A stretch of DNA of 64,000 nt from Lachnospiraceae bacterium (GCA_017517305.1 JAFWZV010000011.1:38192-102191); one strand, 5' to 3'; positions 21,402 to 62,535 are shown, numbered from the stretch's first letter. Translations and numbers: made by a program. Notes: generated by a model not told the origin, from the letters alone.

Positions 21402-21435
21402 CAGTTCTTTATGATAAAGGAACGAGGAATTTACT

Positions 21436-21516
21436 TTCTTGGCCGGCCTGCCTAGGGTCGGTCCACGCTGACACTTAAAACGGTCAGCTTAGTCCCGACC
21501 ACTGTCGCGGCCGGAA
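21436..21516. repeat. Structured ~80-bp interspersed repeat, copy 1 (inside a 150-nt hairpin 21402-21553)
   Basis: ttcttggccggcctgcctagggtcgg..gctgacacttaaaacggtcagcttagtcccgacc..tgtcgcggccggaa; recurs at 21567 and 62402. Confidence 0.9.
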
Positions 21517-21566
21517 GGAAAAGTATTCGCTCGTTCCTTTTTGTAAAGAATTGTATTGAGAAACTC

Positions 21567-21646
21567 TTCTTGGCCGGCCTGCCTAGGGTCGGTCCATGCT
21601 GACACTTAAAACGGTCAGCTTAGTCCCGACCCTGTCGCGGCCGGAA
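21567..21646. repeat. Structured ~80-bp interspersed repeat, copy 2
   Basis: Near-identical to copy 1, starting 131 bp downstream. Confidence 0.9.
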
Positions 21647-21771
21647 CAAAGTTTATTGGCGCAACCCATTTTGCTGTATATTAGAATAATGACGAAGTGT
21701 TAAAACAGATAGATTTGTAATAAATTTAAGAAAAAACAGGTAAAAATGTTGAGTTTTATTAGATTTAAGTA

Positions 21772-21799
21772 TAAAATTTATTTGTTAAGTTGTCGATAT
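21772..21799 (+). promoter_or_regulatory. sigma28 promoter of flaG-fliD-fliS-fliT
   Basis: TAAA-16 nt-GTCGATAT. Confidence 0.65.
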
Positions 21800-21888
21800 A
21801 AGAGATAGCAGAAAGAGGCTAATGCTGGGCGTATGCCTTGATAAGCCTATATAATAACTAGTTAAAGAGACATATAAACTTTATCATA

Positions 21889-21924
21889 TCCCAAAATAAG
21901 GAATGGGAACAATACACATGGAGG
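21889..21924 (+). promoter_or_regulatory. Candidate CsrA binding sites in the flaG leader
   Basis: tccca/tggga hairpin with AAGGA in the loop, and CATGGAGG overlapping the RBS. Confidence 0.45.
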
Positions 21925-21933
21925 TGGAAAGAT

Positions 21934-22371
21934 ATGGGAATTGAAAGAATTGGCGGTGCAGGTGCCATGAGTTATAGCACTAGCACACAGAAGGTAAGCA
22001 AGCCGGAGATACAGGTGACAGATATGGGGTCTGGAGCAACTACAGTTACACCAGACATAGTAGCACCTGTTATGACAGACTCAAGAAGTGGTTACTCACA
22101 GCAGGGTAATCAGGAGCAGCAGGCAGGCTTTGTTCAGAAGGACAAGGAGGTTACTTCAGAGCAGGTTAAATCAGCAGTTGATAACATCAACAATCAGTTA
22201 AGACGTACAAGCTGTAGCTTTAAGTATCACGAGGAGACTAACCGTATCTCTATAACAGTTAGAGATAAGGATACTGATGAGGTTATCAGAGAGATACCAC
22301 CAGAGAAGGCTCTTGATATGATAGCTAAGGCATGGGAGCTTGCAGGTCTTATGGTAGATGAGAAGAGATAG
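21934..22371 (+). CDS. flaG: Flagellar protein FlaG
   Basis: AVDNINNQL...FKYHEETNRISITVRDKDTDEVIREIPPEKALDMIAK. Confidence 0.93.
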   Translation: MGIERIGGAGAMSYSTSTQKVSKPEIQVTDMGSGATTVTPDIVAPVMTDSRSGYSQQGNQEQQAGFVQKDKEVTSEQVKSAVDNINNQLRRTSCSFKYHEETNRISITVRDKDTDEVIREIPPEKALDMIAKAWELAGLMVDEKR

Positions 22372-22387
22372 AAGGGAGAGATAGACT

Positions 22388-24334
22388 ATGGCAATTAGAA
22401 TGACAGGTCTTATTTCCGGTATGGATACAGAGGGCATGGTTAAGGAGTTAGTTCAGGCCAGCTCAACCAAGGTAGATAAGGTTAAGAAGGAACAACAGAA
22501 GTTAGAGTGGAAACAGGAGGCTTGGCAGGATCTTAATACTAAGCTTTATAACTTCTATAAGAGTGATGTATTCAACTTTAAGAGTGTAGGTACATATAGC
22601 TCTAAGAAGGCTACCTCAAGTGACAGCTCCAAGGTGAAGGTAAGCGCAGGCTCATCAGCGCCTAATGGCTCACATTCTGTATCAGTTAAACAGCTTGCTT
22701 CATCTGCTTATCTTACTGGAGGTAATATTAAGGCAGCAGGCAAAAGCTATGTTACATATGCAGATATAACTACATCAACTAATTTTGCAGATATGACAGA
22801 TGCTACAGGTAACAGCTTAGATCTTGCAGGCAAGACCATTACTATTGGTAATGGCAACGATACAGGGGATTTAACCTTTACACTTGGTGGTGATGGTGAG
22901 AATAGCGTAGCTAATCTTGCAGAGCTTAATAAGAAGCTTGCGGCAACTGAGGGCTTTGAGGGACTTAAGGCAAGCATGGTAGATGGCAAGATTACATTTA
23001 CTAACTCAACTGGCAAGGAGAACAAGGACTTTGCCATGGAAGGAACTACCTTTACCATTAAGTCAGATGCTCTTGGTATTGATGGTACTCTTGGATTTAA
23101 GCAGAATAAGGATGATGAAAATCACCCTACTATAGAAAGCACACTTGATGCTAATTATAGAAAGGAATTTGCAAGCTCTGATATTAACAGAGGCACAAAG
23201 CTTGCTGATATAGGAATAGCAGTTGGAACTTCCTTTAGCATTAAGGGTAAGGAGTTTGTGGTAGATGAGAAGACTACAATTGCAGACTTTACAGCAGGAC
23301 TTTCTAAGATGGGTGTAGGAGCTAGCTTTGATGCTACTCATGGAAGATTCTACATTAATGCTTCAGCTACAGGAGCTGAGAATGATTTCGATATCACATC
23401 CTCAGATTCTAATGCTCTTGAGATATTAGGTCTTGGAAGTACAGCTACTAAGGTTGATGCTCAGGATGCTATTATTGAGTACAATGGTGTAGAGTATGTA
23501 GGAGATAGCAATACCTTTAATATTAACGGTCTTACTATAACAGCTACAGGAGTGACTGGTAAGTATGATAAGGCTACAGGTGCATTTACAGATGATTCAC
23601 CTATCAGCATTAGTATAGCTCAGGATACCGATAAGATTTACGATAGCGTTAAGAGCTTTGTTAAGAAGTATAATGAGCTTATAGATGAGATGAACAAGCT
23701 CTATAATGAGAAGGGCACCGATTACGAGCCTCTTACTGAGGAGGAGAGAAGTCAGCTGTCAGATACTCAGATTGAGAAGTGGGAGGAAAAGGCTAAGCAG
23801 GGTATCTTAAGAAGAGATTCTACTATTAGCACCCTTCTCTCTAATATGAGAAGCATCCTTAATAAGTCAGTTAAGGTAACTATGGATGATGGCACAGAGA
23901 AGAGCTTTTCATTAGCGTCACTTGGTATAGTAACCGGTGATTACTCTGAGAATGGTAAGCTTCACATCTTAGGTGACGAGGATGATACAGCTTATGCATC
24001 AGAGACTAACAAGCTTAAGGAGGCTCTTGAAGCTAATCCAGAGATATTCCAGCAGGTATTTGCAGGAGGAGGTAGCAATCCTGGTATAGGAACACAGCTT
24101 TATGACTCACTTGCTACATCAATGAAGCGTACAAGCTCAAGTCGTTCCATGACCTTCTACGAGGATATTACCATGGAAGAGCAGATGAAGGATTATGAGG
24201 ACGAGGTTGACAAGTGGCAGGAGAAGCTTCAGAAGCTTGAGGATAAGTATTATGATCAGTTTGCAGCTATGGAAAGTGCTATGGCAGCTCTCCAGCAGCA
24301 GCAGTCATATATAGCAGGCTTAATGGGTATGTAA
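22388..24334 (+). CDS. fliD: Flagellar filament cap FliD
   Basis: IRMTGLISGMDTEGMVKEL, AQDAIIEYNG...SNTFNINGLTI, YEPLTEEER...WEEKAKQGILRRDS, YYDQFAAMESAM. Confidence 0.96.
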   Translation: MAIRMTGLISGMDTEGMVKELVQASSTKVDKVKKEQQKLEWKQEAWQDLNTKLYNFYKSDVFNFKSVGTYSSKKATSSDSSKVKVSAGSSAPNGSHSVSVKQLASSAYLTGGNIKAAGKSYVTYADITTSTNFADMTDATGNSLDLAGKTITIGNGNDTGDLTFTLGGDGENSVANLAELNKKLAATEGFEGLKASMVDGKITFTNSTGKENKDFAMEGTTFTIKSDALGIDGTLGFKQNKDDENHPTIESTLDANYRKEFASSDINRGTKLADIGIAVGTSFSIKGKEFVVDEKTTIADFTAGLSKMGVGASFDATHGRFYINASATGAENDFDITSSDSNALEILGLGSTATKVDAQDAIIEYNGVEYVGDSNTFNINGLTITATGVTGKYDKATGAFTDDSPISISIAQDTDKIYDSVKSFVKKYNELIDEMNKLYNEKGTDYEPLTEEERSQLSDTQIEKWEEKAKQGILRRDSTISTLLSNMRSILNKSVKVTMDDGTEKSFSLASLGIVTGDYSENGKLHILGDEDDTAYASETNKLKEALEANPEIFQQVFAGGGSNPGIGTQLYDSLATSMKRTSSSRSMTFYEDITMEEQMKDYEDEVDKWQEKLQKLEDKYYDQFAAMESAMAALQQQQSYIAGLMGM

Positions 24335-24341
24335 TTTATAA

Positions 24342-24367
24342 GGGACTGACCTTAAAGGGTCAGTCCC
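24342..24367 (+). other. GC-rich hairpin between fliD and fliS without U-tract (possible mRNA stabiliser/attenuator)
   Basis: gggactgacc-ttaaag-ggtcagtccc perfect 10-bp stem, followed by cataac. Confidence 0.55.
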
Positions 24368-24394
24368 CATAACTAGAATTGGGAGGTACATTAT

Positions 24395-24793
24395 ATGGCA
24401 GCATATAATGCAGCGAAGGCATACGGTAATAATAAGGTACTTACAGCTTCACCGGCTGAGCTTACACTGATGCTCTATGATGGAGCGGTAAAGTTTGCTA
24501 ACAAGGCGGTAGATGCTTTGGAGAAGCAGGACTACGAGAATACTAATATTAATATTCAAAGATGTAGAGCTATAATTGTAGAGCTTATGACTACACTTGA
24601 TTTTAAGTATCCTGTTGCGGAGGACTTTAAGAGAATGTATGACTATATCTTTAATCTATTAGTTAAGGCTAATATGGAGAAGGATATGGAAACCTTACAG
24701 AAGGCCTTAGAGGAAATTCGTGGTATGAGAGATGTGTGGAAGGAAGTTATGGCTAAGGCCAAGGGTCCACAGCTTGTGTTAGATACTAATTAG
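24395..24793 (+). CDS. fliS: Flagellin chaperone FliS
   Basis: VLTASPAELTLMLYDGAVKF, IIVELMTTLDF, EEIRGMRDVWKEV. Confidence 0.96.
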   Translation: MAAYNAAKAYGNNKVLTASPAELTLMLYDGAVKFANKAVDALEKQDYENTNINIQRCRAIIVELMTTLDFKYPVAEDFKRMYDYIFNLLVKANMEKDMETLQKALEEIRGMRDVWKEVMAKAKGPQLVLDTN

Positions 24794-24812
24794 TTCAAAG
24801 CGAGGTGTTCTT

Positions 24813-25295
24813 ATGAACCAGACAGGAACATATGTAACTATAATGAAGGAATCTCTGGTGAGGAAGAAAAACTATTTGCAGGAGATTCTGGATTTAACTA
24901 ATAAGCAGGGAGAACTGGCAAGCGCTCAGGAATTTGATGAGGAAGCCTTTGGTGCTATAGTAGAGAAGAAGGATATCCTTATATCTAATGTTAATGAGAT
25001 TGACAAGGGTTTTACTGCAGTATATGAGAGAGTTCGCAGTGAGATAATTCAGGATAAGGAGCTATACAAGGTTCAGCTTAAAGATATTCAGGAGTCTATA
25101 AAGCAGTGTGTGGACCTTGGAATGTCTATAGAAAGTGCAGAGCTTAGGAACAAATCAGCATTAGAGACAGCCTTCGCCAAAAGCTTTAGAGGAGTTAAGC
25201 AGCTGAAGCAGTCTAAGCAGGTGGTTAATAAGTATTATAAGTCCATGTCCAATGGTATGGTGAACGATTCTATATTATATGATAGAAAAAAATAA
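24813..25295 (+). CDS. FliT/FlgN-like flagellar export chaperone
   Basis: Helical 160-aa protein directly after fliS, the fliT position. Confidence 0.55.
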   Translation: MNQTGTYVTIMKESLVRKKNYLQEILDLTNKQGELASAQEFDEEAFGAIVEKKDILISNVNEIDKGFTAVYERVRSEIIQDKELYKVQLKDIQESIKQCVDLGMSIESAELRNKSALETAFAKSFRGVKQLKQSKQVVNKYYKSMSNGMVNDSILYDRKK

Positions 25296-25333
25296 TTTTT
25301 TAAAAAAATTTTAAAAAAATGTATAAAAAGGGG

Positions 25334-25360
25334 TTAAGTATATAAAAAAGACTCCGATAT
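25334..25360 (+). promoter_or_regulatory. sigma28 promoter of flagellin
   Basis: TTAA-15 nt-TCCGATAT preceded by an A/T-rich UP-like tract. Confidence 0.85.
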
Positions 25361-25449
25361 ATATAATGTAAGGAACAAAAACAAACAAAACCTTACAAAA
25401 TCAACTTAGGTAGTTACCCTTTAAGGGAATTACATATAACATTTTAACG

Positions 25450-25504
25450 GTGGCAAGGACCACTAGTACATGTCGCAAGGAAGCGACATTATATTCAAGG
25501 AGGA
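25450..25504 (+). promoter_or_regulatory. CsrA binding sites in flagellin 5' UTR
   Basis: gtgg-CAAGGA-ccac and atgtcgc-AAGGAA-gcgacat hairpins with GGA in the loops, plus CAAGGAGGA at the RBS; fliW-csrA nearby. Confidence 0.75.
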
Positions 25505-25510
25505 ATTATT

Positions 25511-26323
25511 ATGGTAGTACAGCACAACATGCAGGCAATCAACACTAACAGAATGTTAGGACAGAACGTTAAGGCAGTAGCAAAGTCAACAGAGAAGTTA
25601 TCATCAGGTTACAGAGTTAACAGAGCAGCTGATGATGCAGCAGGTCTTTCAATTTCTGAGAAGATGAGAAATCAGATTAGAGGAATCAACCAGGCAGTTA
25701 CTAACGCTGAGGATGGTGTATCACTTATCCAGACTGCAGAAGGTAACTTAAATGAGGTTCACTCAATCCTTCAGAGAATGGGCGAGCTTGCAACTAAGGC
25801 AGCTAACGACGTTAACGCAACTGAGGATCGTAACGCTATCCAGAAGGAAATCGATGAGCTTTCATCAGAGATCGATGAGATCGCTAGAAAGGCTGAGTTC
25901 AACGGAACATCTCTTCTTAACGGTTCATTCACAGGCAAGAAGCTTCAGGTAGGAGCTAAGTCAGGTGAGACTATGGATATCGATATCGAGGAGATTTCAG
26001 CATCTATCCTTTTAGGTGGTGCAGTTGAGGTTGGATCACACACAAGTGCTTCAACAGCTATGACTAACATCAGAAGTGCAATCATTAAGGTTTCTGATTA
26101 CAGAGCAACTCTTGGTGCTAAGCAGAACAGACTTGAGTACACTATCAACAACCTTGAGAACTACTCAGAGAACTTAACATCAGCTGAGTCAACAATCAGA
26201 GATACTGATATGGCATCAGAGATGACTAACTACACTAAGACTAGCATTCTCCAGCAGGCTGCACAGTCAATGCTTGCACAGGCAAATCAGTCTACTCAGG
26301 GTGTACTTTCACTTATTCAGTAA
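25511..26323 (+). CDS. fliC: Flagellin, minimal D0/D1-only type (270 aa)
   Basis: MVVQHN...EKLSSGYRVNRAADDAAGLSISEKMR; RATLGAKQNRLEYTINNL...ESTIRDTDMASEM...QAAQSMLAQANQ. Confidence 0.98.
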   Translation: MVVQHNMQAINTNRMLGQNVKAVAKSTEKLSSGYRVNRAADDAAGLSISEKMRNQIRGINQAVTNAEDGVSLIQTAEGNLNEVHSILQRMGELATKAANDVNATEDRNAIQKEIDELSSEIDEIARKAEFNGTSLLNGSFTGKKLQVGAKSGETMDIDIEEISASILLGGAVEVGSHTSASTAMTNIRSAIIKVSDYRATLGAKQNRLEYTINNLENYSENLTSAESTIRDTDMASEMTNYTKTSILQQAAQSMLAQANQSTQGVLSLIQ

Positions 26324-26345
26324 TTAACATTATTGAACCAAATAT

Positions 26346-26376
26346 AGCTGGCTCGCTTGCGAGCCAGCTTGTTTTG
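26346..26376 (+). terminator. Intrinsic terminator after flagellin
   Basis: agctggctcg-cttg-cgagccagct then tgtttt. Confidence 0.85.
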
Positions 26377-26395
26377 GTTATAGGGGGTTTATGGT

Positions 26396-28729
26396 ATGGA
26401 ATTTCCAAAGGGATATTTTGAGGATGAGATACGAGAGGGATTTTATGTATCCGGTATGATTAAAAGAACCTGGGCAGCTCAGTTAGAGGTGCTTAAGGTT
26501 ATTGATGATATATGTAAGAAGCACGATATAAGATGGTTCGCCGATTGTGGAACCTTGCTTGGGGCAGTTAGACATAGTGGTTATATCCCTTGGGATGATG
26601 ATCTTGATATTTGTATGCTTAGAGATGAATATACCAGATTTAACAAGATTGTTCAAAGAGAGCTTCCAGAAGGATATGTATGGCTAAATTTTGATAATGA
26701 TAAGGATACATATTATGAGCACATTACCAGAATAGCTAACAGCCATAGACTTAATTTTGATAAGGATTATTTAGAGAAATATCACGATTGTGCCTATTCG
26801 GTAGGCGTGGATATATTTCCGCTGGATTACCTATGTGAGGATGAGGAAAAGGAAAGAGAGAGACAGGAGCTTGCAAAGGTTACCATGCTGACAGCTGGAT
26901 CTATAAGCAAAGATAATGATAATTTAGAAGAATGTAAGGATGTTTTAAGAGATATAGAGAGATTATGTGGAGTTAAGTTTAATTATAAGAAGAATGTGAA
27001 GCAACAATTATTTAAGCTTACTGATAGGTTGTTTTCAAAATATACAAATACCGAAAGTAAGTATGTTGCCCTTATGCACTTTTGGGTGCAGGATGGTGAT
27101 CACAAGTATCCAGTGGAGTATTTTAAGGATGCTATTATGATGCCCTTTGAGAACACAGAGCTTCCCGTTCCAGTGGCCTATGATGGAGTTCTCCGTATTG
27201 AATACGGAGATTATATGAAGATCTGTAGACAGGGAGGCGCCCATGGTTATCCTTACTTTGAGGGTCAGGAAAAATTTCTGATGAAGCTACTTCCTGACTA
27301 TCATTTTAAGTATACATTTAAAAAAGAGGATTTGGAAAATCCTGTAAGAGATTCTTATGTAAGCCCTAAGAAGCAGGCTGAGGATTTTGTTGGCCTAATG
27401 AGTCAGGCTCATGCTGTAGTGCTTAAGTCTATAATGGGCAAACAGTATGATGCGGCTAACCAGCTTCTTATGTCCTGTCAGGATAGTGCCATTAAGATAG
27501 GAACATTGCTTGAGGAGCATTACGGACTAGGTTTTGCCACAGTGGGACATTTGGAGCAGTATTGTGAGGTTATATATCAGGTGTTCGAGATGGTGCATCA
27601 GGTTAGTCAAAATCCGGATAGCTATATCGATGTGGAGGATTTGGACAGCTTCTTACATGAGGTTCTGGTTAATATAGCTGTAAGTATAGAGCAGGATATA
27701 CCTAAGAATAAGAAGATATTATTCATAGGCTGCAAGGCTGATGCATGGGATGCATTTGACAGTGTGTGGAGAGCGGCAAAGGATGAACCTGAAACCTCAG
27801 TTTATGTTATGCCGGTGCCATATTATGAGCGTAATGCTGTAGGTGGCAGTAAGGCTATGCATTATGAGGGTGACTTGTATCCTGAATATTTGGATATAGT
27901 AAACTATGAGGAGTATGATATAGCCAAGGAGCATCCGGATGTAATATTTATCCAGAATCCCTATGATGAGTGTAATTATACTACAAATATTATGCCAGCC
28001 TTTTATTCGGAGAGATTAAAAGGACTTACTGATAAGCTGATTTATATCCCTTGGTTTAAGCTTACAGAGCTTGGGGATGGAGAAGAAAAGCCTAGAAAGA
28101 CTATGGATTATTTCTGTAAGGTGCCAGGGGTGGTTCATGCAGATATAGTTATAGTTCAGTCTGAGCAGATGCGCAGAGAATATATAGAATGCTTGACAGA
28201 GTTTGCAGGAGAGGATACAAGAGAAATCTGGGAAAAGAAGATAGTTGGTCTTGGTACTCCTTTGGATGATGCAGAGCAGAAGAAATTTGCGTCTGTGGAT
28301 AAAATATCATTGGTGTCAGAGGCGCCTGAGGCTTGGAAGAAGGTTTTACTTAGAGGGGATGGGGAGCTTAAGAAGAGTATATTATATAACACCTCAGTGG
28401 CTGCGTTTATGCAGTATGGAGAGAAAATGTTAGATAAGGTTGAGAGAACATTGCCAGTCTTTGAGGAGAACAAGGAGGAGATTGCTCTTATATGGAGACC
28501 TCATCCTAAGCTTGCAGAATCAATTAAGTCCTTAAAGCCTGAGCTGTTTGATAGATACAATTCTGTGGTGGAGAGCTTTAAGAATGCCGGCTGGGGAATA
28601 TATGATGATTCTGCAGATATGGAAACAGCTATACAGCTTTGTGACGCATATTATGGTGATTCTGATGGTGTGGCGCATAAGTGTGAGACCTTAGGTAAGC
28701 CGGTGATGTTACAGAATGTGGAGATGTAG
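26396..28729 (+). CDS. LicD-family phosphotransferase fused to helical linker and C-terminal GT-B/TagF-like domain (paralog 1)
   Basis: WFADCGTLLGAVRHSGYIPWDDDLDICMLR and GVDIFPLD LicD motifs; C-terminal HPDVIFIQNPYD, WRPHP, CDAYYGDS. Confidence 0.85.
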   Translation: MEFPKGYFEDEIREGFYVSGMIKRTWAAQLEVLKVIDDICKKHDIRWFADCGTLLGAVRHSGYIPWDDDLDICMLRDEYTRFNKIVQRELPEGYVWLNFDNDKDTYYEHITRIANSHRLNFDKDYLEKYHDCAYSVGVDIFPLDYLCEDEEKERERQELAKVTMLTAGSISKDNDNLEECKDVLRDIERLCGVKFNYKKNVKQQLFKLTDRLFSKYTNTESKYVALMHFWVQDGDHKYPVEYFKDAIMMPFENTELPVPVAYDGVLRIEYGDYMKICRQGGAHGYPYFEGQEKFLMKLLPDYHFKYTFKKEDLENPVRDSYVSPKKQAEDFVGLMSQAHAVVLKSIMGKQYDAANQLLMSCQDSAIKIGTLLEEHYGLGFATVGHLEQYCEVIYQVFEMVHQVSQNPDSYIDVEDLDSFLHEVLVNIAVSIEQDIPKNKKILFIGCKADAWDAFDSVWRAAKDEPETSVYVMPVPYYERNAVGGSKAMHYEGDLYPEYLDIVNYEEYDIAKEHPDVIFIQNPYDECNYTTNIMPAFYSERLKGLTDKLIYIPWFKLTELGDGEEKPRKTMDYFCKVPGVVHADIVIVQSEQMRREYIECLTEFAGEDTREIWEKKIVGLGTPLDDAEQKKFASVDKISLVSEAPEAWKKVLLRGDGELKKSILYNTSVAAFMQYGEKMLDKVERTLPVFEENKEEIALIWRPHPKLAESIKSLKPELFDRYNSVVESFKNAGWGIYDDSADMETAIQLCDAYYGDSDGVAHKCETLGKPVMLQNVEM

Positions 28730-28776
28730 GAAAAGAGAATAGATACGGGCTAGTATTTTGTGGGGCAATCTGCGGG

Positions 28777-29223
28777 CCTAACTATCATATCAACCTGCTT
28801 AATCCCTATGATGTGGATGATATATCCGTGTTTAAAACGGATTTACAAATGTTTATCGGTATGGTAAAATGCAATAAAGATAAGGATAAAATGAAAAATT
28901 ACATATTTCAGCATGAGGAGTATTTCAGCAATCTGGATTATGAGTCGGGTATAGTGTATGACCAGGTTTTGAATGTAGGCAAGTTTGTCAAAAAGGAGCT
29001 AGGTGAGAAAGGGGAGAAGGTTGATATGTGTAAGGCGATACAGGATATGTATGATAGTGCAAAGGAGGAAGGAATAGAGCAAGGAATAAATCAGGGAATA
29101 GCTAAGCTTATAACTGTTCTCAGAGGATTAGGTATTTCTGATGGGCAGATTATAGATGAGCTTATGGAAAAATACGAAATGTCTAGAGAAGAAGCCAGCA
29201 AGCGCTTGGAGGCATTTGTATAA
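28777..29223 (+). pseudogene. 5'-truncated Rpn / PD-(D/E)XK transposase-family gene; C-terminal part intact
   Basis: PNYHINLLNPYDVDDISVFKTDL and MCKAIQDMYDSAKEEGIEQGINQGI...GISDGQII typify the Rpn-family C-terminus; nuclease half absent. Confidence 0.7.
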
Positions 29224-29304
29224 TTTGAAAATGTTTGTCGGTATGGGAAATGTAACAGAGGTAAGTTTAGAAGTTAGGTATTTGATGGAATAGAATAAAA
29301 AAGG

Positions 29305-29332
29305 TTAATAAATAGTCGTGAAATGTCGATAT
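29305..29332 (+). promoter_or_regulatory. Putative sigma28 promoter upstream of the pse cluster
   Basis: TTAA-16 nt-GTCGATAT. Confidence 0.5.
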
Positions 29333-29386
29333 AATATTATAAGGTGTATCACAATTCATGACATGGAAGTCGAATGAGATATATTA

Positions 29387-29427
29387 GGGCGAATTCTATG
29401 CATAGAGGTGTGGAGTTCGTCTTTTTT
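29387..29427 (+). terminator. Terminator-like hairpin in the pseB leader
   Basis: gggcgaattc / gagttcgtc stem with G-U pairs followed by tttttt. Confidence 0.5.
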
Positions 29428-29549
29428 GATGGCGAAAGCTGTAAGAAAAAAGTACTTTTTCTATATAAATTAAATGGATTATGATATAGTTAAAGTAGTT
29501 GATATGATGCACGATTTTTCAATATATACAAGGAAGGATAATAAGATAT

Positions 29550-30548: not shown

Positions 30549-30608
30549 GACAATGGGTGCATACAGAGTTTTCCTAAAATAACACAAAAAAGTTAGGGGT
30601 CATGTGTG

Positions 30609-31301
30609 ATGAAAAAAAGATGCTTAGCAGTTATAACTGCAAGAGGTGGAAGCAAAAGAATACCACGAAAAAACATAAAGGACTTTTGTGGAAAGCCTAT
30701 TATGGCATATTCTATAGAAGCAGCATTAGAATCAAATATATTTGATGAAGTTATGGTTTCTACGGATGATGAGGAAATAAAAGAAATTGCATTAAAATAT
30801 GGTGCAAAGGTACCATTTATGCGATCAGAGGAAGCTTCTAATGATATGGCCACAACCCATGAGGTAATATTAGAGGTGCTGAGAGCTTATAAAGAACTGG
30901 GTACGGAATTTGATTATGTATGCTGTATATATCCTACTGCACCGTTTGTAACTAAGGAAAAACTACAAGAGGGTTTTGACAAAATTACAAAGGAAGAAGC
31001 GGACACAGTAATCCCTATAGTTGCATTTTCATTTCCACCTCAGCGTTGCTTTATAATTAAAGATGAAAAGGTATCATTTAAGTGGCCAGAGAATAGATTA
31101 AAGCGCTCACAAGATTTGGAAAAGTTGTATCATGACGCAGGCCAGTTTTATTTCTTGAATGTAGAAAGATTCCAAGAATCAGAGAATATGATTATGGAGA
31201 ATACCGTTCCAATAATTGTAGATGAAATGGAAGTTCAGGATATAGATAATGAAGTTGATTGGAAATTGGCAGAGTTAAAGTATCAGTTGCTTAAGGAATA
31301 G
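30609..31301 (+). CDS. pseF: CMP-pseudaminic acid synthetase PseF
   Basis: AVITARGGSKRIPRKNIK, VMVSTDDEEI, CCIYPTAPF, RSQDLEKLYHDAGQFY, VQDIDNEVDWKLAE. Confidence 0.92.
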   Translation: MKKRCLAVITARGGSKRIPRKNIKDFCGKPIMAYSIEAALESNIFDEVMVSTDDEEIKEIALKYGAKVPFMRSEEASNDMATTHEVILEVLRAYKELGTEFDYVCCIYPTAPFVTKEKLQEGFDKITKEEADTVIPIVAFSFPPQRCFIIKDEKVSFKWPENRLKRSQDLEKLYHDAGQFYFLNVERFQESENMIMENTVPIIVDEMEVQDIDNEVDWKLAELKYQLLKE

Positions 31302-31315
31302 TAGAATGGAGTTCG

Positions 31316-32353: not shown

Positions 32354-32366
32354 TTGCAAGGAGGTT

Positions 32367-33327: not shown

Positions 33328-33351
33328 TCATAGAAAATAAGGAGTAGGGTT

Positions 33352-35056: not shown

Positions 35057-35057
35057 G

Positions 35058-50350: not shown

Positions 50351-50369
50351 CAGAAAGGAGTGACACACT

Positions 50370-51710: not shown

Positions 51711-51752
51711 AATAAGCTACAAGCAGTTTGATGGTTACGAGAGGTACGGCAT

Positions 51753-53112: not shown

Positions 53113-53113
53113 G

Positions 53114-55156: not shown

Positions 55157-55197
55157 TATTGCATAGAGAAGATTTGTAGTTACGAGGGGGTATACAT

Positions 55198-55860
55198 ATG
55201 AACTTTGAACTTAACGCATCTATGATGTGCGCAAATTTTGGTAACTTAGAAAAAGAAGTAAAGCTTTTAGACGAGGCAGGTATCGATTCATTTCATATAG
55301 ACATTATGGATGGTCGTTATGTGCCTAATTTTGCTATGTCCTTAAATGACATGAGATACATCGCAGGTGCAACTAAAACACCTCTTGATGTGCATCTTAT
55401 GATTGAGCACCCGAATAATCGTATAGGATTGTTTCTTAACAACTTAAGACCTGGTGATACCGTGTACATTCATCCGGAAGCGGAGTATCATCCATCTACA
55501 ACACTTCAGGCTATTATAGATGCTGGAATGATTCCTGGTATAGCTATTAATCCAGGAACTAGTGTTGAGACAGTTATGGAGATGCTTCGTATCGTTAAGA
55601 AGGTTCTGCTTATGTCTGTAAATCCTGGTAATGCGGGACAGATGTATCTCCCATATGTAGGCGAGAAGATTAATAAGCTTATTTCTCTCAAGGACGATAT
55701 GGATTTTGAGATTTACTGGGATGGAGCTTGTGGTATGGATAAGATTAAGGAGTTTGCCCCTAAGGGTATCAAGGGCTTTGTTCTTGGTACAACTGTGCTG
55801 TTTGGCAAGGACAGAGAGTATGGAGAGATTATTAAAGATATTAGAAATATTGAGTTTTAG
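55198..55860 (+). CDS. Ribulose-phosphate 3-epimerase family (Rpe/AlsE-like)
   Basis: ASMMCANFGNL, FHIDIMDGRYVPN, PLDVHLMI, GIAINPGT, LLMSVNPG, WDGA. Confidence 0.88.
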   Translation: MNFELNASMMCANFGNLEKEVKLLDEAGIDSFHIDIMDGRYVPNFAMSLNDMRYIAGATKTPLDVHLMIEHPNNRIGLFLNNLRPGDTVYIHPEAEYHPSTTLQAIIDAGMIPGIAINPGTSVETVMEMLRIVKKVLLMSVNPGNAGQMYLPYVGEKINKLISLKDDMDFEIYWDGACGMDKIKEFAPKGIKGFVLGTTVLFGKDREYGEIIKDIRNIEF

Positions 55861-55869
55861 GAGAACTAT

Positions 55870-56568
55870 ATGAATATAGCTCTGGTTTTAGCTGGAGGTA
55901 CAGGGACTAGACTTGGTGCTGATATGCCTAAGCAGTACCTTGTGGCTAAGGATAGGATGATAATTACATATTGCTTGGACACATTTTTTGCTTCTCCTAA
56001 CATAGATATGGTTTGGATAGTTGCTGAAAATAGTTGGCAGTCAGAGATTGTTAACGAATTAGATAAGCAGGGTATAAATCAAGGAAAGCTAAAAGGCTTT
56101 TCTCTGCCTGGTGCTAATCGTCAGTTATCCATATATAATGGTTTGTCTGACATTGTAAAATGTGCCCCAGAGGGCTCTTGCGTAATGGTTCACGATGCGG
56201 CTAGACCATTGCTTACCGAAGAGCTTATCAGCAGGTGCTTTGATGGACTTAAAGGCCATGATGGGGTTATGCCTGTTCTTCCCATGAAGGATACGGTGTA
56301 TATGAGTCAGGATGGAAATACAGTTTCAAAGCTTTTGGATAGAAGCACCCTGTTTGCAGGACAGGCTCCAGAGGTGTTTGATTTGTATAAATATTATCAG
56401 GCATGTCAGGCTTTATTGCCAGATAAAATTTTAGCTATCAATGGTTCCACTGAGCCGGCCATAATGGCAGGGTTGGATATTGCTATGGTGCCAGGTGATG
56501 AGGGTAATTTTAAAATTACAACCAAAGCAGATATGGATAGATTTATTGAACTTGTAGATAAATTATAA
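55870..56568 (+). CDS. IspD/TarI-family alditol-phosphate cytidylyltransferase
   Basis: VLAGGTGTRLGADMPKQYL, GANRQLSIYNGL, VMVHDAARP, AGQAPEVF, NFKITT. Confidence 0.9.
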   Translation: MNIALVLAGGTGTRLGADMPKQYLVAKDRMIITYCLDTFFASPNIDMVWIVAENSWQSEIVNELDKQGINQGKLKGFSLPGANRQLSIYNGLSDIVKCAPEGSCVMVHDAARPLLTEELISRCFDGLKGHDGVMPVLPMKDTVYMSQDGNTVSKLLDRSTLFAGQAPEVFDLYKYYQACQALLPDKILAINGSTEPAIMAGLDIAMVPGDEGNFKITTKADMDRFIELVDKL

Positions 56569-56596
56569 AATGGATTTACAGAGAGGGTGTGTTGAG

Positions 56597-57673
56597 ATGA
56601 AAGCATGGGTATTGCACAGCATAAATGATTTCAAGTTTGAGGAGCATGATAATCCAATACCTCAGCCAGGAGAGGTGTTAATTAAGGTTAAGGCAGCAGG
56701 TATATGTGGCTCTGATATTCCTCGTGCATATGAGACAGGTGCTCATGTTCATCCTCTTGTTACAGGACATGAATTTTCTGGTCAGGTAGTTCAGGTGGCA
56801 GATGAGGAGCATGCGAATTGGATAGGTAAGAGAGTGGGTATATTTCCTCTTATACCTTGCAGAGAGTGTGGTCCATGTAAGAATGAACAGTATGAAATGT
56901 GTAGGAATTACAGCTATCTGGGTTCTAGAAGAGACGGGGGATTTGCAGAATATGTATCTGCACCAGTGTCTAATCTTATAGAATTACCGGATAATGTAAC
57001 CTTTGAACAGGCAGCTATGCTGGAGCCTATGGCAGTGGCAGTTCATGCCATGAGACGTGGGTTTTCCCTTATGGGCTCAGTGGCTGAAGAGACTTTGAAT
57101 AATAGTACAGTGGCTGTATGGGGACTTGGAACCATAGGACTTTTGTTGGTTATGTTCCTAAAACAGGCAGGGGTTAGAAATATATATGCCATTGGCAACA
57201 AGGAATTTCAGAAAAAGCAGTTGGTTGAGCTGGGGATTCCTCAGGAGAATTACTGTGATAGCAAATCAGATGATGCCCATAAGTGGCTTATGAATAAAAC
57301 TGAGGGCTACGGAGTGGATTTGTTCTTTGAATGCGTAGGTAAAAATCAGGTGGTGGCTGAAGCAGTTGAAGCTACAAAGCCTGCAGGTGGAATAGTTTAT
57401 GTAGGTAATCCTTATTCAGATATGCAATTTGATAAGCCTACTTATTGGAAGATACTTAGAAATCAATTAAAAATTACCGGATCCTGGAATTCCTCCTTTA
57501 CCGGTGATGATAATGATGACTGGAATTATGTGGTACAGTGTTTAGCCAAGAGTTGTATTGCGCCAGAGAAGCTTATCTCTCACAGATATCCTATGGAGGA
57601 GCTTGAAAAGGGATTTCACATTATGAGAGACAAGACAGAGGATTATGTAAAAATAATGGGAATTGGGGAGTAG
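56597..57673 (+). CDS. Zn-dependent alditol-phosphate dehydrogenase (MDR family)
   Basis: GICGSD, TGHEFSG, CRECGPC...C, GGFAEY, EPMAVAVHA, GLGTIG. Confidence 0.9.
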   Translation: MKAWVLHSINDFKFEEHDNPIPQPGEVLIKVKAAGICGSDIPRAYETGAHVHPLVTGHEFSGQVVQVADEEHANWIGKRVGIFPLIPCRECGPCKNEQYEMCRNYSYLGSRRDGGFAEYVSAPVSNLIELPDNVTFEQAAMLEPMAVAVHAMRRGFSLMGSVAEETLNNSTVAVWGLGTIGLLLVMFLKQAGVRNIYAIGNKEFQKKQLVELGIPQENYCDSKSDDAHKWLMNKTEGYGVDLFFECVGKNQVVAEAVEATKPAGGIVYVGNPYSDMQFDKPTYWKILRNQLKITGSWNSSFTGDDNDDWNYVVQCLAKSCIAPEKLISHRYPMEELEKGFHIMRDKTEDYVKIMGIGE

Positions 57674-57682
57674 GAAAAGGAT

Positions 57683-59227
57683 ATGTTTGAATTAGTTGAA
57701 GGAATGATATTTCATTTATATGCGGAAACTGAGCAGGATGCGGTGGCTCAGGCCAAGGAGTTTTATGGTCAGGGAGGTCATGATAACGATGTTGTGGCTG
57801 TAAATGGTCTCTTAGACGAACCTATTTATTTGAGTAAAAGTACAGCAATGTTAGGTTATTTGAGACAGGATGGATTTGTATATTTTACTCGTAGAATGTT
57901 TAAGGATGCCAGGCTTAATTCTCATCTAGCTATGGGAGGAATTATACCTGCTTTAAATGAATTAGGAGAACCGGTTTGTCTGATTAGAAAAAAGGGACTT
58001 TCTGGTTATGTGCATGACTACACAGCGGTAAATGATGTTATTGATATAAGACCTTTTGAACTTTATGATAATGTTGTGTTAAATGAGATTACTGAGCATG
58101 CATTTATCTTGCTTAAAGATGCCCTTAGTGGATATAGTGGAAAGATTGTCTTAGCAGGAGAGGGCTGGCAGGATTTTAAGAAACTTTTTCCTGAGCGTGA
58201 TGAAATTATATATGTTGACAGCATAGACCAGTTGCCTCCTGATGTAGTTCAGGGTAAAACTATGTATCTTATGGAGTTTATGTCCAACATGGCTGGCTGG
58301 GATCAGCGTGTAAAGGAGGGCTTTTTCTCCTATGATGAGGTTATGAGTGTAGTTTATTGCTTTGCCAAGAGAAAGAGCTATGGTGACAAGCATCCTGATA
58401 AAAAGTTCTTCCTTGTGAACCCGGGCATGACTATGGAGGGATTGATGTCTGTATGTGATAAGGTGCAGACACCATATGCCTATGCAAAGGCAAATGGATT
58501 CATACCGGTTATAAGATTAACTCAGTCAGACAGAAATATATATTCAGATAAGCCAAGAGATGATATTTGGAGTAAGTTTTTTGTTCAGCCTTATGGTGAG
58601 GAGGCAAGTGAGTGGTCAGAGGCTTGTAATGTGTGGGAGTTTCCGTACAGTACCATTACATTTTCAGCTAGATGGCTTATGACTCAGATTGTAAAATGTG
58701 AGCCTGTTAGCTTTATGAATACAAATTTCATTAATGAGAGAGTAAGGGTAGAAATTGACAAGGTTAGGGAGGGTGTACTTCTTGAGCCAGAGAAAACTAT
58801 AGGCGTTTTGATTAGAGGAACAGACTATACAACCAGCGCAGTGCCTGGACATTCTGTTATGGCTACTCCTGAGCAGGTTATGGAGAAAATCCTTGAGCTT
58901 GAAGCTAGTGGTGAATACGGCAACATTTTCTTATCCACAGAGGATGAGGATATATTAGAGAAAATGAAGCAGTTATGCGGAGATAAACTTACATACATTG
59001 ACCAAAAGCGCTTTAAGATTAAAGCTGGAGAGCTACTTGCAGATCAGGCAAAGGAACGAGAAAATGAGGGCTGGCTTAAGGGTAAGGAGTATCTTACAAC
59101 CTTAAAGCTGTTGTCAGAGTGTAAGGCATTTATTGCCTCAGGTGGCTGTTGCGGGACTACCTGTGCACTAAACTCAGGCAAGGATAATTTTAAGGAAAGC
59201 TTCGTGTTTGACTTGGGCAGAAATTAA
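57683..59227 (+). CDS. Unknown N-domain + NodZ/O-fucosyltransferase-like GT-B domain
   Basis: C-terminal IGVLIRGTDY and IFLSTED motifs; LKLLSECKAFIAS. Confidence 0.6.
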   Translation: MFELVEGMIFHLYAETEQDAVAQAKEFYGQGGHDNDVVAVNGLLDEPIYLSKSTAMLGYLRQDGFVYFTRRMFKDARLNSHLAMGGIIPALNELGEPVCLIRKKGLSGYVHDYTAVNDVIDIRPFELYDNVVLNEITEHAFILLKDALSGYSGKIVLAGEGWQDFKKLFPERDEIIYVDSIDQLPPDVVQGKTMYLMEFMSNMAGWDQRVKEGFFSYDEVMSVVYCFAKRKSYGDKHPDKKFFLVNPGMTMEGLMSVCDKVQTPYAYAKANGFIPVIRLTQSDRNIYSDKPRDDIWSKFFVQPYGEEASEWSEACNVWEFPYSTITFSARWLMTQIVKCEPVSFMNTNFINERVRVEIDKVREGVLLEPEKTIGVLIRGTDYTTSAVPGHSVMATPEQVMEKILELEASGEYGNIFLSTEDEDILEKMKQLCGDKLTYIDQKRFKIKAGELLADQAKERENEGWLKGKEYLTTLKLLSECKAFIASGGCCGTTCALNSGKDNFKESFVFDLGRN

Positions 59228-59274
59228 AGGATGAAATAATGGAACCAAGCGCTATGCTATGATGAGGTTTTACT

Positions 59275-61572
59275 ATGGATATAACAACAGAATTCTTGAG
59301 AGATGAGGTGCGAAGTGGCTTTTACATCCCAACTGCTATCAAACAGGCTTGGGCGGTACAGCTTCATATTCTTTCGGAAATAGACAGAATTTGTAGAAAA
59401 TATAATATTACATATTTTGCAGATTGGGGTACTCTCCTTGGCACCATAAGACATGGTGGATATGTGCCTTGGGATGATGATTTGGATATTTGTATGAAAC
59501 GAGAGGATTATAATCGTTTTAGGCAGGTGGCAGACAGAGAGCTTCCCAAAGAGTTTGCAATTCATGATTATGAGCGCAAGGACGGCCATTGGTTGTTCCT
59601 TGCGCGAGTTATTAATAGAAATCAGATTTGCTTTGATAAGGAGCATCTTGATAAGTATTACAATTTTCCCTATATAGCAACTGTAGATATCTTTGTGCTT
59701 GATTACTTGTATAAGGATGAGGAGCAGGAACAAAAAAGGTGTGAAGAGGTAAAATACTTATTGGCATTGGCAGACCTAATTGTTCAGGGAAATAAGACAT
59801 TTTCTGATATGAGCTTAGAGCTTGGCAAGGTGGAGTCAATGTATCACACAACTATAAATCCTACCTTAAGTTCTCGTGATATAGGAATAAGATTATATCA
59901 GATAGCTGAACAACAGATGGCTCGTGTTCCTAAGGAGGAAGCTGATACTATAGGACAGATATTTCCTTGGGTATTAAAGGGAGGGAGGGGACTGCCTAAG
60001 AAATATTATGAGAAAACAGTTCGCCTACCCTTTGAAATGACCACTATGCCGGTACCTGCCTACTATCATCTTGTATTGCAGAATAGATATGGAGATTATT
60101 TTAAGGTGCATAAGGTGTGGGATGGACACGATTATCCATACTTTGAAGGGCAGAGAAGGAATCTTCAGAAGGAGGCAGATTTTGAACTGCCGGAATTTAA
60201 GTTTAATAAGAGTATGTTGCGTCAAAGAGATGCAGAGTCAGATAAATCAGGCTCCCTAAAAATCATATCCGAGGAGTGTGTGGCAGAGCTTGATATGATG
60301 CTTACATCAGTAGAAGGTGGAGTAGAAGGCAAGTTATATGATGAAGTGTTAGCTATTCTACCAGAGTGTCAGCAGCTGGCCATTGACCTAGGAACACTGA
60401 TAGAGAGCGTTAAGGGGGAGAATAACCTTTGTTCTGCTATAGTGGTTTCTTCTTTGGAACAATTTTGTGAGGCACTGTTTGGCGTATATGAAATATTGAC
60501 AGCGGAGGCTGATATAAAAGGTGATTTGCTATCAAAACAGCTTGTGAATCTAAGAGAGACATTTTCTGTAGTTGTACAAGAAGTATCAAGTCAGATAATT
60601 GAGAAAAAAGAAATTCTTTTTGTCACTACAGGTCATAAGCAATGGAGAGGATTTGAGTCCTTGTATGCGGCTGCATCAGCAGAAGCAGAAAATGATATTT
60701 ATGTTGTACCTGTACCGTTACTATGGAAAAATGGATATGGACAGGTTACCATGACGGATGATGAGATTATAGCTGCTGTGAAGAGTGAAGCATATCCTGA
60801 ATATGTAAAGCTGACAGCTTGGAGCTCTTATTCTCTTGAGTTACATCATCCTGACATTATATTTATTCAGGATCCATATGATGGAGAAAATGGTTGCCTT
60901 ACTATTCCCTCTCAATTTTATGCTAAGAATCTTCAGAAATATACTGAAAAGCTGATATATGTGCCTCCATATGTAGTTGAGGAATTTGGGCAAAGGGATA
61001 CCACGGCTTTGTACAATATGAAGCATTATGTGACAGCGCCAGGTGTTGTGTGTGCGGATAATGTTATAGTTCAGTCGGAACATATGAGAAAGCTTTATGT
61101 TGATAAGCTTACAGAATTTGCAGGTGGTGATACAAAAGCTATATGGGAGGAAAAGCTTCTAGCTCTTGGATTGCCTGTGATGGATGTAGAGTATGCAGAT
61201 AAGAAGGATAGTCAGGATAAAAGAATTCTCTTTTGTCTGGGTTGTAATGATTTATCAGAAAGTGAAGTGGATTTTGTATCAAAGCTACAGGATAAGCTAG
61301 CTGTGTTTAAGGCTAATCATGATAAGCTACAGGTTGGAATTTGCATGTATCCGGCAGATATAGAACAATGGAATATGGTTGATGAAGAAAATGTGGTAAG
61401 TAGGGTTGTAGAAGCAATTAAGGAATTATCCATTGAACCATGGTGCTTTATTGTGGACGTAAGCCAGATGGATATGATAGATATTGCAAGGGATTTTGAT
61501 GCCTACTATGGATGCTCATCACCATTGGTGCATATGTTTAATTGTGAACAAAAACCTGTAATGCTATGGTAA
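59275..61572 (+). CDS. LicD-family phosphotransferase fusion (paralog 2)
   Basis: YFADWGTLLGTIRHGGYVPWDDDLDICMKR, VDIFVLD; same C-terminal HPDIIFIQDPYD...FDAYYG domain as 26396-28729. Confidence 0.85.
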   Translation: MDITTEFLRDEVRSGFYIPTAIKQAWAVQLHILSEIDRICRKYNITYFADWGTLLGTIRHGGYVPWDDDLDICMKREDYNRFRQVADRELPKEFAIHDYERKDGHWLFLARVINRNQICFDKEHLDKYYNFPYIATVDIFVLDYLYKDEEQEQKRCEEVKYLLALADLIVQGNKTFSDMSLELGKVESMYHTTINPTLSSRDIGIRLYQIAEQQMARVPKEEADTIGQIFPWVLKGGRGLPKKYYEKTVRLPFEMTTMPVPAYYHLVLQNRYGDYFKVHKVWDGHDYPYFEGQRRNLQKEADFELPEFKFNKSMLRQRDAESDKSGSLKIISEECVAELDMMLTSVEGGVEGKLYDEVLAILPECQQLAIDLGTLIESVKGENNLCSAIVVSSLEQFCEALFGVYEILTAEADIKGDLLSKQLVNLRETFSVVVQEVSSQIIEKKEILFVTTGHKQWRGFESLYAAASAEAENDIYVVPVPLLWKNGYGQVTMTDDEIIAAVKSEAYPEYVKLTAWSSYSLELHHPDIIFIQDPYDGENGCLTIPSQFYAKNLQKYTEKLIYVPPYVVEEFGQRDTTALYNMKHYVTAPGVVCADNVIVQSEHMRKLYVDKLTEFAGGDTKAIWEEKLLALGLPVMDVEYADKKDSQDKRILFCLGCNDLSESEVDFVSKLQDKLAVFKANHDKLQVGICMYPADIEQWNMVDEENVVSRVVEAIKELSIEPWCFIVDVSQMDMIDIARDFDAYYGCSSPLVHMFNCEQKPVMLW

Positions 61573-61706
61573 AAATATAAAAAATACAAAAAATTCTTAC
61601 ACAAAGTTTTTAGTTTGTACATAATTTGTTAAAAATTATGAGTTATACTAAACATAGTTCATTTCATAAATTAAATCTTTTCTTTAAAGGCAGGGAAACC
61701 TGCAGT

Positions 61707-61744
61707 GCAAAAGAGACCGAAATTAAGTTTTCGGTCTCTTTTGC
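61707..61744. terminator. Strong hairpin / terminator closing the glycosylation island
   Basis: gcaaaagagaccgaaa / tttcggtctcttttgc 16-bp perfect IR. Confidence 0.75.
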
Positions 61745-61946
61745 GTTGTAGGGATGTGTATTGCTACCCTAGGTCCGTATATATTCGGCTCTATGGGATA
61801 GGTTATGGAATCTTTGTGCTAAACATAATGAAATAAAAACAAAATTGATTGAAATACCCTTCGATTCGTGATACCCTATCCTTGTTGTAAATAAAAAGAA
61901 AAATAATATAAATATATTTATTAATTATGAAAACGGAGGAAAAATT

Positions 61947-62375
61947 ATGATAGCTTTAGGCTGTGATCACGGTGGTTATGAATTAATGCAGGAGGTTAAG
62001 GCTCATCTTGAGAAGAGAGGCTTTGAATATAAGGATTTTGGATGCTACAGCAATGATTCTGTAGACTATCCAGAGTACGGAAAAAAGGTTGCTCATGCAG
62101 TTGCAGATGGTGAGTGCGAGCTTGGAATTCTTATCTGTGGAACAGGAATCGGAATATCAATTGCTGCAAATAAGGTGAAGGGAATCAGAGCTGCTCTTTG
62201 CGCAGATTGTTTTTCGGCAGCGGCTACAAAGGAGCATAACAATGCAAATATTCTTGCTATGGGCGCTAGAACTACAGGTCCTGGACTTGCACTTAAAATT
62301 GTTGATACATTCCTTGATACACCATTTTCTAATGATGAGAGACATATTAGAAGAATTAATATGATAGAAGAATAA
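61947..62375 (+). CDS. rpiB: Ribose-5-phosphate isomerase B
   Basis: ALGCDHGG, SVDYP, LICGTGIGISIAANKVKGIRAA, HNNANILAMGAR, RHIRRI. Confidence 0.96.
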   Translation: MIALGCDHGGYELMQEVKAHLEKRGFEYKDFGCYSNDSVDYPEYGKKVAHAVADGECELGILICGTGIGISIAANKVKGIRAALCADCFSAAATKEHNNANILAMGARTTGPGLALKIVDTFLDTPFSNDERHIRRINMIEE

Positions 62376-62401
62376 TTTTAAAGGGCTGTGTGCATTTTGC
62401 T

Positions 62402-62480
62402 TTCTTGGCCGGCCTGCCTAGGGTTCCCACCGCGCTGACACTTAAAACGGTCAGCTTAGTGGGACCCTGTCGCGGCCGAA
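62402..62480. repeat. Structured ~80-bp interspersed repeat, copy 3 (inside hairpin 62382-62505)
   Basis: Same core as 21436/21567 with a substituted but still paired inner stem; outer stem agggctgtgtgc/gcacacagccct. Confidence 0.9.
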
Positions 62481-62535
62481 ATAAAGTTTGTTCGCACACA
62501 GCCCTATATTTTATACATTTTTATGATTTCTGGTT

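Follow-up and report, generated by a model that had tools for sequence, protein, structure and literature searches.

A family of GC-rich palindromic repeats at gene 3' ends in Lachnospiraceae, with a conserved interior and variable outer stems

Three copies of a structured repeat at two gene junctions

The 64,000-nucleotide stretch of a Lachnospiraceae bacterium analysed here (GCA_017517305.1 JAFWZV010000011.1:38192-102191; hereafter the window) carries three copies of a structured repeat in two intergenic spacers. Copies 1 and 2 are found in the csrA-flaG spacer, within a flagellar region of the order flgK-flgL-fliW-csrA / flaG-fliD-fliS, and copy 3 takes up most of the spacer between rpiB and a convergent sua5/tsaC-like gene (Table 1). 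An initial annotation of the sequence had proposed three copies at these places, and we find them there: the apical 22-mer GCTGACACTTAAAACGGTCAGC occurs at 21467, 21598 and 62434, each time on the + strand and with 0 occurrences expected from shuffles, and the mean column identity of the three copies is 88% over about 106 nt. A covariance model built from 60 family members finds only these three copies in the window.

Each copy folds as one long hairpin, with energies of -60.7 kcal/mol for copy 1 (z -5.6 against shuffles) and -65.8 kcal/mol for copy 3 (z -7.7), and a z of -4.0 for copy 2. The reverse strands fold equally well. Covariance-model scores are 119-133 bits for the + strand, against 38-45 bits for the - strand (45.4 for copy 1). 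Much of the detail first described for these copies is confirmed. The middle stem reads GGGTCGG/CCGACC(C) in copies 1 and 2 and GGGTTCCCAC/GTGGGACCC in copy 3, so that its sequence differs while pairing is kept; copies 1 and 3 sit within longer outer stems, which begin 15 nt 3' of the csrA stop codon and 8 nt 3' of the rpiB stop codon; and the copies are GC-rich (52-53% G+C) in an AT-rich genome. The outer stems had also been called unrelated sequence, which is too simple. That of copy 3, GGGCTGTG(TG)C, is a variant of the commonest outer stem of the wider family (GGGCTGTGC), and that of copy 1, GGAACGAGG, is a member of a recurrent GGACGAGG type. Copy 2 has lost its 5' outer arm and retains only the 3' arm, and comparison with L154 and L161 identifies it as the orthologue of the single copy found in related strains.

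Table 1. Positions of the repeat copies, their parts and the adjoining genes in the window
Feature	Position	Strand	Partner or support
Copy 1, complete element, long hairpin directly 3' of csrA	21412-21544	+	covariance-model match, 126.8 bits
Copy 1 outer stem (P1), 5' arm AAAGGAACGAG	21416-21426	+	partner 21530-21540
Copy 1 5' clamp: P2 GGCCGGCC, bulge, P3, P4 base (TGCCTAGGG)	21441-21457	+	partner 21502-21514
Copy 1 apical hairpin GCTGAC-ACTTAAAACG-GTCAGC	21467-21488	+	
Copy 1 3' clamp CTGTCGCGGCCGG	21502-21514	+	
Copy 1 outer stem, 3' arm CTCGTTCCTTT	21530-21540	+	partner 21416-21426
Copy 1 3' arm and T-run, terminator-like tail	21530-21544	+	
Copy 2, element without 5' outer arm	21546-21674	+	covariance-model match, 119.4 bits
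Copy 2 apical hairpin	21598-21619	+	
Copy 2 remnant of 3' outer arm GGCGCAACCCA	21658-21668	+	
Copy 3, complete element	62378-62509	+	covariance-model match, 132.5 bits
Copy 3 outer stem, 5' arm GGGCTGTGTGC	62383-62393	+	partner 62494-62504
Copy 3 apical hairpin	62434-62455	+	
Copy 3 outer stem, 3' arm GCACACAGCCC	62494-62504	+	partner 62383-62393
csrA, followed at its 3' end by copy 1	21186-21401	+	PF02599 CsrA on identical protein
rpiB, followed at its 3' end by copy 3	61947-62375	+	PF02502 LacAB_rpiB
sua5/tsaC-like gene, convergent with rpiB across copy 3	62536-63687	-	PF01300 and PF03481

Other features of the window were noted in passing. A sigma-28 (FliA/SigD)-like promoter, TAAA-N16-GTCGATAT, lies upstream of flaG-fliD-fliS at about 21772-21799 (+), judged by the sigma-28 consensus, and related contigs keep it as TAAA...GACGATAT. 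The csrA stop codon and this promoter bracket copies 1 and 2. A glmS ribozyme/riboswitch is found at 1706-1863 (+) (RF00234, 71.7 bits, E = 1.7e-14), and a tRNA/tmRNA scan of the window returned none.

Family membership and shared architecture

The repeat extends well beyond the window. We count at least 64 copies, distributed over 36 independent sites, in five metagenome-assembled genomes of Lachnospiraceae and the window's species. In scans of one genome per species, the exact apical-hairpin pattern identified 28 loci, and a pattern built on the conserved clamp (described below) identified 54 stretches, made up of 45 real members, 1 outlier (L033, described below) and 8 chance matches in high-GC genomes. 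All true matches of both scans fall in SIG296, SIG302, RGIG4033, RGIG8543 and a Wujia sp., and in 0.5 Mb of retrieved DNA the covariance model finds about 64 copies. As the copies were gathered by these two exact patterns, per-genome counts are lower bounds and the conservation of loop and clamp is enriched. The window's own species is not among the scanned representatives; its nearest relative is SIG296, with Sua5 81% and RpiB 92% identical. In DNA metagenomes that hold the window, the summed contig depth is 42-68 times as great at the apex as in the flanks, in keeping with dozens of copies per genome. Assemblies from short reads are interrupted within the element, with two contigs (L070, L071) ending in the apex, and in Logan contigs the element is a collapse point (window 21460-21500).

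The family is restricted to a small Lachnospiraceae clade from gut and rumen, related to Wujia. No match came from viral contigs, plasmids or phages, and a search for distant families using the clamp with wider gaps (51-80 nt) returned chance matches only. A lone hairpin directly 3' of a stop codon in Bacillota bacterium bin.72, an unrelated Bacillota genome (L033, about 6990-7090, - strand), has the same clamp (GCCTGCCTAGGG ... CCCCTGGCGCGGC) and a wholly different apex, and is missed by the covariance model; it may be a distant relative. Nor does the repeat belong to a named RNA family, a point on which the original suggestion of novelty depended: in the window Rfam gives nothing at gathering score apart from glmS, in 21380-21700 it gives nothing at E <= 10, and in three further stretches (L002, L026, L055) it gives tRNAs only. 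The word GGCTGTGC was considered as a common terminator- or uptake-type genome word and rejected, as it has 0 copies in the window.

These results bear on the plainest explanation of the likeness between copies, which is that they are ordinary terminators that evolved independently, or a local duplication, and resemble one another by chance. Their position and tails are indeed terminator-like. Against this stand a conserved core of about 80 nt common to at least 64 copies in six species, and 22-mer and covariance-model scores far above chance. The initial annotation had allowed for a local duplication; the further copies found by the pattern scans (28 and 45 loci) and the covariance model refute this explanation, and we give it next to no probability.

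The complete element is a GC-rich imperfect palindrome of about 135-170 bp. From the outside inwards it consists of an A-rich tract, the outer stem P1, an AT-rich stem, P2, a bulge with P3, the clamp loop, P4 and the apical hairpin, and its 3' half holds the mirror-image arms and ends in a T-rich tract. P1 has 8-12 GC-rich pairs and recurs at unrelated sites in a few types (GGGCTGTGC, GGATGCGC, AAAAGGACCAGG and GGACGAGG), alongside unique P1s. The AT-rich stem is imperfect, with the 5' consensus TTACTTTCTTGG and the 3' side CCGGAATGAAGTTTATTGG. P2, GGCCGGCC/GGCCGG, is followed inwards by the bulge, the two-pair P3 and an asymmetric internal loop within the clamp CTGCCTAGGG / CCCTGNCGCGG. The distal 3-7 pairs of P4 are hypervariable and always paired, and the apical hairpin has the consensus GCTGAC-ACT(T)ANNACG-GTCAGC. 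The loop is therefore not invariant, as the three window copies had made it appear, and its stem covaries too (GCCGAC/GTCGGC, GCAGAC/GTCTGC and GTTGAC/GTCAAC). Neither is the loop the most invariant part of the element, since the clamp is at least as conserved, with the enrichment of both as search patterns to be kept in mind.

The inference that the structure is constrained is upheld by 60 copies, in which 93% of pair cells hold standard pairs and double changes occupy 246 cells against 80 in shuffles, affecting 18 of 32 pairs. Covariation is seen in every stem, and when partners are slid by 1-3 columns as a control, only 30-48% of cells pair. One copy (L012, 6907-7039) departs from the common form in having 5' and 3' clamps that are exact reverse complements of each other (CCGACCGCGACAGGG ... 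CCCTGTCGCGGTCGG). The conserved asymmetry is gone there, as expected if one arm had been corrected against the other, and the two strands score 96 and 64 bits.

Placement, orientation and turnover

For position statistics the 64 copies were reduced to the 36 independent sites, of which 21 (58%) lie between convergent genes, against a background of 11.5% convergent junctions in the same DNA (P = 2e-11). Co-directional junctions account for 5-6 sites with the element sense to the upstream gene and 6-7 with it antisense, and the 1-3 apparently divergent sites are based on calls of 77-79-aa open reading frames. The element usually begins 0-30 nt past a stop codon and often fills the whole spacer, and its neighbours are ordinary housekeeping genes. 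In fixed-window counts, a T-tract (>=5/8 T after the 3' arm) is present in 38 of 44 copies, against a 26% background, and an A-tract precedes the 5' arm in 30 of 44. An A-tract, a GC-rich outer stem and a T-tract together have the form of a bidirectional intrinsic terminator, here closing a "loop" of about 110 nt, and the repeats probably serve as terminators, judging from these features.

Two observations concern the surroundings of particular copies. At three independent sites (L002 4190-4485; L043; L026 about 3430-3780; L011 about 340-690; L055) a second, larger palindrome encloses the element, in the order GTGAAGGTTG, hairpin CCCAGCGCATAG..TATGTGCTGGG, element, mirror hairpin, CAACCTTCAC and small hairpin ATCGCCTTCGGCGAT. 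It fills spacers of 230-290 nt between convergent housekeeping genes, seems to be a second repeat family, unmatched in Rfam. Elsewhere (L010, 928-1509, - strand) a gene for an Uma2-family putative restriction endonuclease adjoins one copy, a single case that is probably incidental.

A further question is whether the element acts as RNA. The initial annotation had named an uncatalogued RNA motif as one possibility, and the family could be imagined as a structured non-coding RNA with conserved loops to which a protein or a second RNA binds, either a cis element of the 3' untranslated region or a small RNA derived from the 3' end. The covariation is strong, the elements are always transcribed within 3' ends, and three G:U positions are conserved on the + strand; no known family matches, hence such an RNA would be new. 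Elements also occur in metatranscriptome contigs, which are assembled and carry no strand or 3'-end information, and their presence there leaves some room for an RNA role. On the other side, orientation shows no bias relative to the upstream gene at co-directional sites, no promoter is conserved, and folding is equally good on both strands. A comparison of two sites (L018 and L061) gives a direct view of orientation change. Their upstream genes are 90% amino-acid identical, and they share the same spacer and the same outer stem (GGGCTGTGCC/GGCACAGCCC), yet everything between the outer arms is reverse-complemented. Mismatches in the variable stems are G:U in 31 cases and A:C, the wobble pair of the other strand, in 39, a balance that prefers neither strand. 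Free orientation, in-place flips and the mismatch balance thus argue against a sequence-specific RNA role, and for DNA-level recognition or a purely structural role. The family is probably not an RNA gene or motif, and we regard a structured RNA as quite improbable.

The rpiB-sua5 spacer shows the same freedom of orientation across species. It carries the element in four of them, sense to rpiB in the window and the Wujia sp. (L028) and antisense to rpiB in SIG302 (L052) and SIG296 (L042/L074), with related outer stems in 3 of the 4. All eight contigs that encode the identical RpiB are either filled or broken inside the element, and no population-level flips or deletions are visible in contigs from DNA runs. 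Gene order at this locus has changed as well, and the change coincides with the element. Among 26 related species checked (L074-L099), 25 have sua5 and rpiB co-directional, and the four of these scanned with the covariance model (L075-L078) have no element. The window and three of the element-bearing genomes (SIG296, SIG302 and Wujia sp. T1900044649) have rpiB turned round so that it converges with sua5, and the element lies where the two genes meet. The palindrome may mark the rpiB inversion or may have mediated it.

At the csrA-flaG site, contigs encoding an identical CsrA reveal a series of states. One (L157) lacks the element and has, at the corresponding position, only a plain hairpin, CAGCCCTTGCA-AAT-TGCAAGGGCTG. 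A single copy, the orthologue of copy 2 with its GGGCTGTGC outer stem intact, is present in five contigs, and the window has two. Another (L161) has copy 1 with a core-deleted copy 2, and two more hold a nested pair (L163; and L162, in which the inner core is deleted). In the core-deleted copies (L161, about 1860-1900; L162, about 1790-1830) the palindrome arms are joined at short direct repeats (TTGG, GCGG), which shows that the interior can be lost by microhomology deletion. The search for empty sites suggested at the outset thus yielded one clear case, L157.

Across the family, conservation and turnover both centre on the hairpin tip. Mean identity is 0.81 in the apex against 0.49 in the outer arms, and non-orthologous sites of different species can share apexes with 100% identity (for example, copy 1 of the window with L023 and L028, and copy 3 with L014). 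At one orthologous pair (L002 and L043) the flanks are identical and the arms 96% identical, but the P4 alleles differ, having been swapped. In RGIG4033, 15 of 20 copies have a 9-nt loop, among them 6-7 sites whose orthologues elsewhere have a 10-nt loop, a pattern that points to homogenisation within the genome. Nesting is seen at five loci (L035, L045, L053, L021 and L163), where a complete element with its own outer stem lies inside an older copy, with AT-rich linkers, and replaces that copy's distal P4 and apical hairpin. At orthologous sites the flanking genes are 0.45-0.84 identical at four-fold sites and the apexes 0.72-0.99, so that the interior is held by selection, conversion or both. 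A further arrangement is found in an ABC-ATPase/rhomboid spacer (L019, 288-520; L004, 3556-3760), where an extra 39-nt left arm ending in CCTAGG precedes a complete element, from which about 32 nt of unrelated sequence separate it; in L025 (2099-2229) that spacer contains just the element. The arrangement resembles a nested insertion that was resolved by half.

Relation to known repeats and a candidate mode of spread

The suggestion of an HUH/RAYT-mobilised REP- or MITE-like element stands in part. It is a dispersed repeat of REP/MITE-like kind with no Rfam entry, but the predicted Y1/RAYT gene was not found, and no other transposase either, among about 93 neighbour proteins at the 36 sampled sites (by Pfam, plus 25 scanned individually). 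A tblastn search of about 600 kb with IS200 TnpA, a weak test, also gave nothing, and no gene is bracketed by orphan left and right arms in the manner of an autonomous element. Integron attC sites, which have R''/L''-L'/R' boxes with a GTTRRRY core and lie in cassette arrays beside an integron integrase, do not fit, as there are no GTTRRRY or RYYYAAC boxes at the hairpin base and the copies are single and dispersed among housekeeping genes.

REP, BIME and REPIN sequences are extragenic palindromes, rich in GC, that occur at the 3' ends of genes and between convergent genes, and REPINs form long hairpins with compensatory changes, long vertical persistence and a within-genome sequence population (PMC3116915, PMC5581495, PMC3184786). 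Our family has these same properties of composition, folding, placement and persistence. If it were of REPIN type, its members would be non-autonomous hairpins, and a HUH/Y1 transposase (RAYT) encoded by a single-copy gene would recognise the hairpin in single-stranded DNA and copy it. The long hairpin with conserved arms and compensatory changes, and the dozens of copies per genome, accord with this; the persistent vertical occupancy of orthologous sites and the placement at gene 3' ends match described REPINs and REPs (PMC3116915, PMC5581495), and a protein that recognises a folded strand is suggested by the conservation of bulges and loops. However, RAYTs are characteristically associated with REPs, and both protein searches above were negative. 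The architecture is also inverted: REPINs have conserved REP arms around a variable spacer, whereas our element has a conserved centre and its most variable sequence at the termini, and it is not built of two recognisable REP units. We see no REP singlets, no BIME-type mosaics and no GTAG-type 5' motif, and the known systems are those of Proteobacteria with a RAYT, while ours is found in Clostridia, with no RAYT found near any sampled copy. On balance a REPIN-type origin seems unlikely.

A classical MITE (miniature inverted-repeat transposable element), the deletion derivative of an insertion sequence with a DDE transposase, terminal inverted repeats and direct target-site duplications, would account for the size, palindromic form, copy number, intergenic placement and nesting, all typical of bacterial MITEs (PMC3184786). 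The termini are nevertheless the least conserved part of our element (mean identity of the outer stem 0.49), and the adjoining flanks are complementary inverted repeats rather than direct ones, with no target duplication seen. No insertion sequence with matching ends occurs in about 600 kb or in plasmids or phages, and binding of a transposase to terminal repeats does not explain why P4 varies freely yet stays paired. We accordingly place little credence in a MITE.

ERIC/YPAL elements of Enterobacteria are imperfect palindromes of about 127-168 bp that lie in transcribed intergenic regions in both orientations and form a single long hairpin (PMC3184786). They resemble our element in form, size, freedom of orientation and fold, and differ in having conserved terminal inverted repeats and TA flanks, neither of which is present here. 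Judged by analogy, the closest functional analogue is the pneumococcal SPRITE, a Firmicute interspersed repeat with a terminator-like stem and T-rich tail near the 3' ends of coding sequences, strongly over-represented between convergent genes, present in tens of copies in a narrow clade, and with no identified transposase or demonstrable target duplication (PMC3049150). The stem and T-rich tail, the 3'-end placement and the convergent enrichment are common to both, and by these features our element falls in the same class. SPRITE is AT-rich (28% GC), with a simple 18-bp duplex, a long U-rich tract and AAAA/TTTT termini (PMC3049150). Our element is 52% GC in an AT-rich genome, and its interior of about 80 nt is conserved and asymmetric, comprises several helices and shows covariation, in-situ flips and apex exchange. 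The two show no evident sequence similarity, have unrelated hosts and are set apart by composition and architecture. The family is thus a new relative of the small interspersed palindromic repeats and not a member of any named family. With respect to the tip as a target, the insertion sequences IS1397 and ISKpn1 reportedly insert into the loops of REP palindromes. They too are mobile DNA that targets the tip of a chromosomal hairpin, which is where nested copies of our element sit, though they encode a transposase of the IS3 family, whereas our element is a non-coding palindrome that replaces the recipient's apex.

We therefore favour, with fair though incomplete confidence, a DNA-level palindromic repeat family of REP/REPIN/SPRITE-like kind that occupies terminator positions and has spread and been homogenised from the hairpin tip. 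Family membership, structure, position, free orientation, in-situ inversion, apex exchange and nesting are direct observations. Several points weigh against this interpretation. No mobilising enzyme was found, and we infer mobility only from distribution, nesting and swapping. The one clear empty site (L157) has flanks so diverged that neither insertion boundaries nor a target duplication can be defined from them. The terminator function is read from sequence features, and some tails are poor T-runs. Collection by exact patterns biases the conservation of loop and clamp as well as the per-genome counts, and some of the compensatory changes could stem from quasipalindrome template-switch correction rather than selection.

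Under the favoured interpretation, the interior would be recognised as a DNA hairpin or cruciform rather than as RNA, and spread and homogenisation would centre on the hairpin tip, either through a trans-acting structure-specific enzyme or through breakage at the tip followed by repair using ectopic copies. A contribution to the compensatory pattern may also come from quasipalindrome template switching. If the terminator-like base does act as a terminator, insertions would be tolerable or useful to the host. More tentatively, we suggest a bolder possibility, which we think has a modest chance of being right: that the family replicates as non-coding DNA homing to the tips of hairpins. Its conserved interior would be copied into any suitable hairpin apex, whether of a terminator or of an older copy, by tip breakage and repair or a trans-acting structure-specific enzyme and with no need of an adjacent transposase, creating and renewing bidirectional terminators genome-wide.

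Small palindromic repeats have been well studied in Proteobacteria and pneumococci, and scarcely in those uncultured Clostridia of the gut and rumen that dominate metagenomes. In practical terms, these elements break assemblies, mark terminators and could mediate inversions. That the centre is conserved rather than the ends, together with the pattern of turnover, suggests a tip-directed spread unlike terminal-repeat transposition. The family shows such repeats as an evolving population, in which occupancy of sites is conserved across species while orientation, outer stem and apex type turn over.

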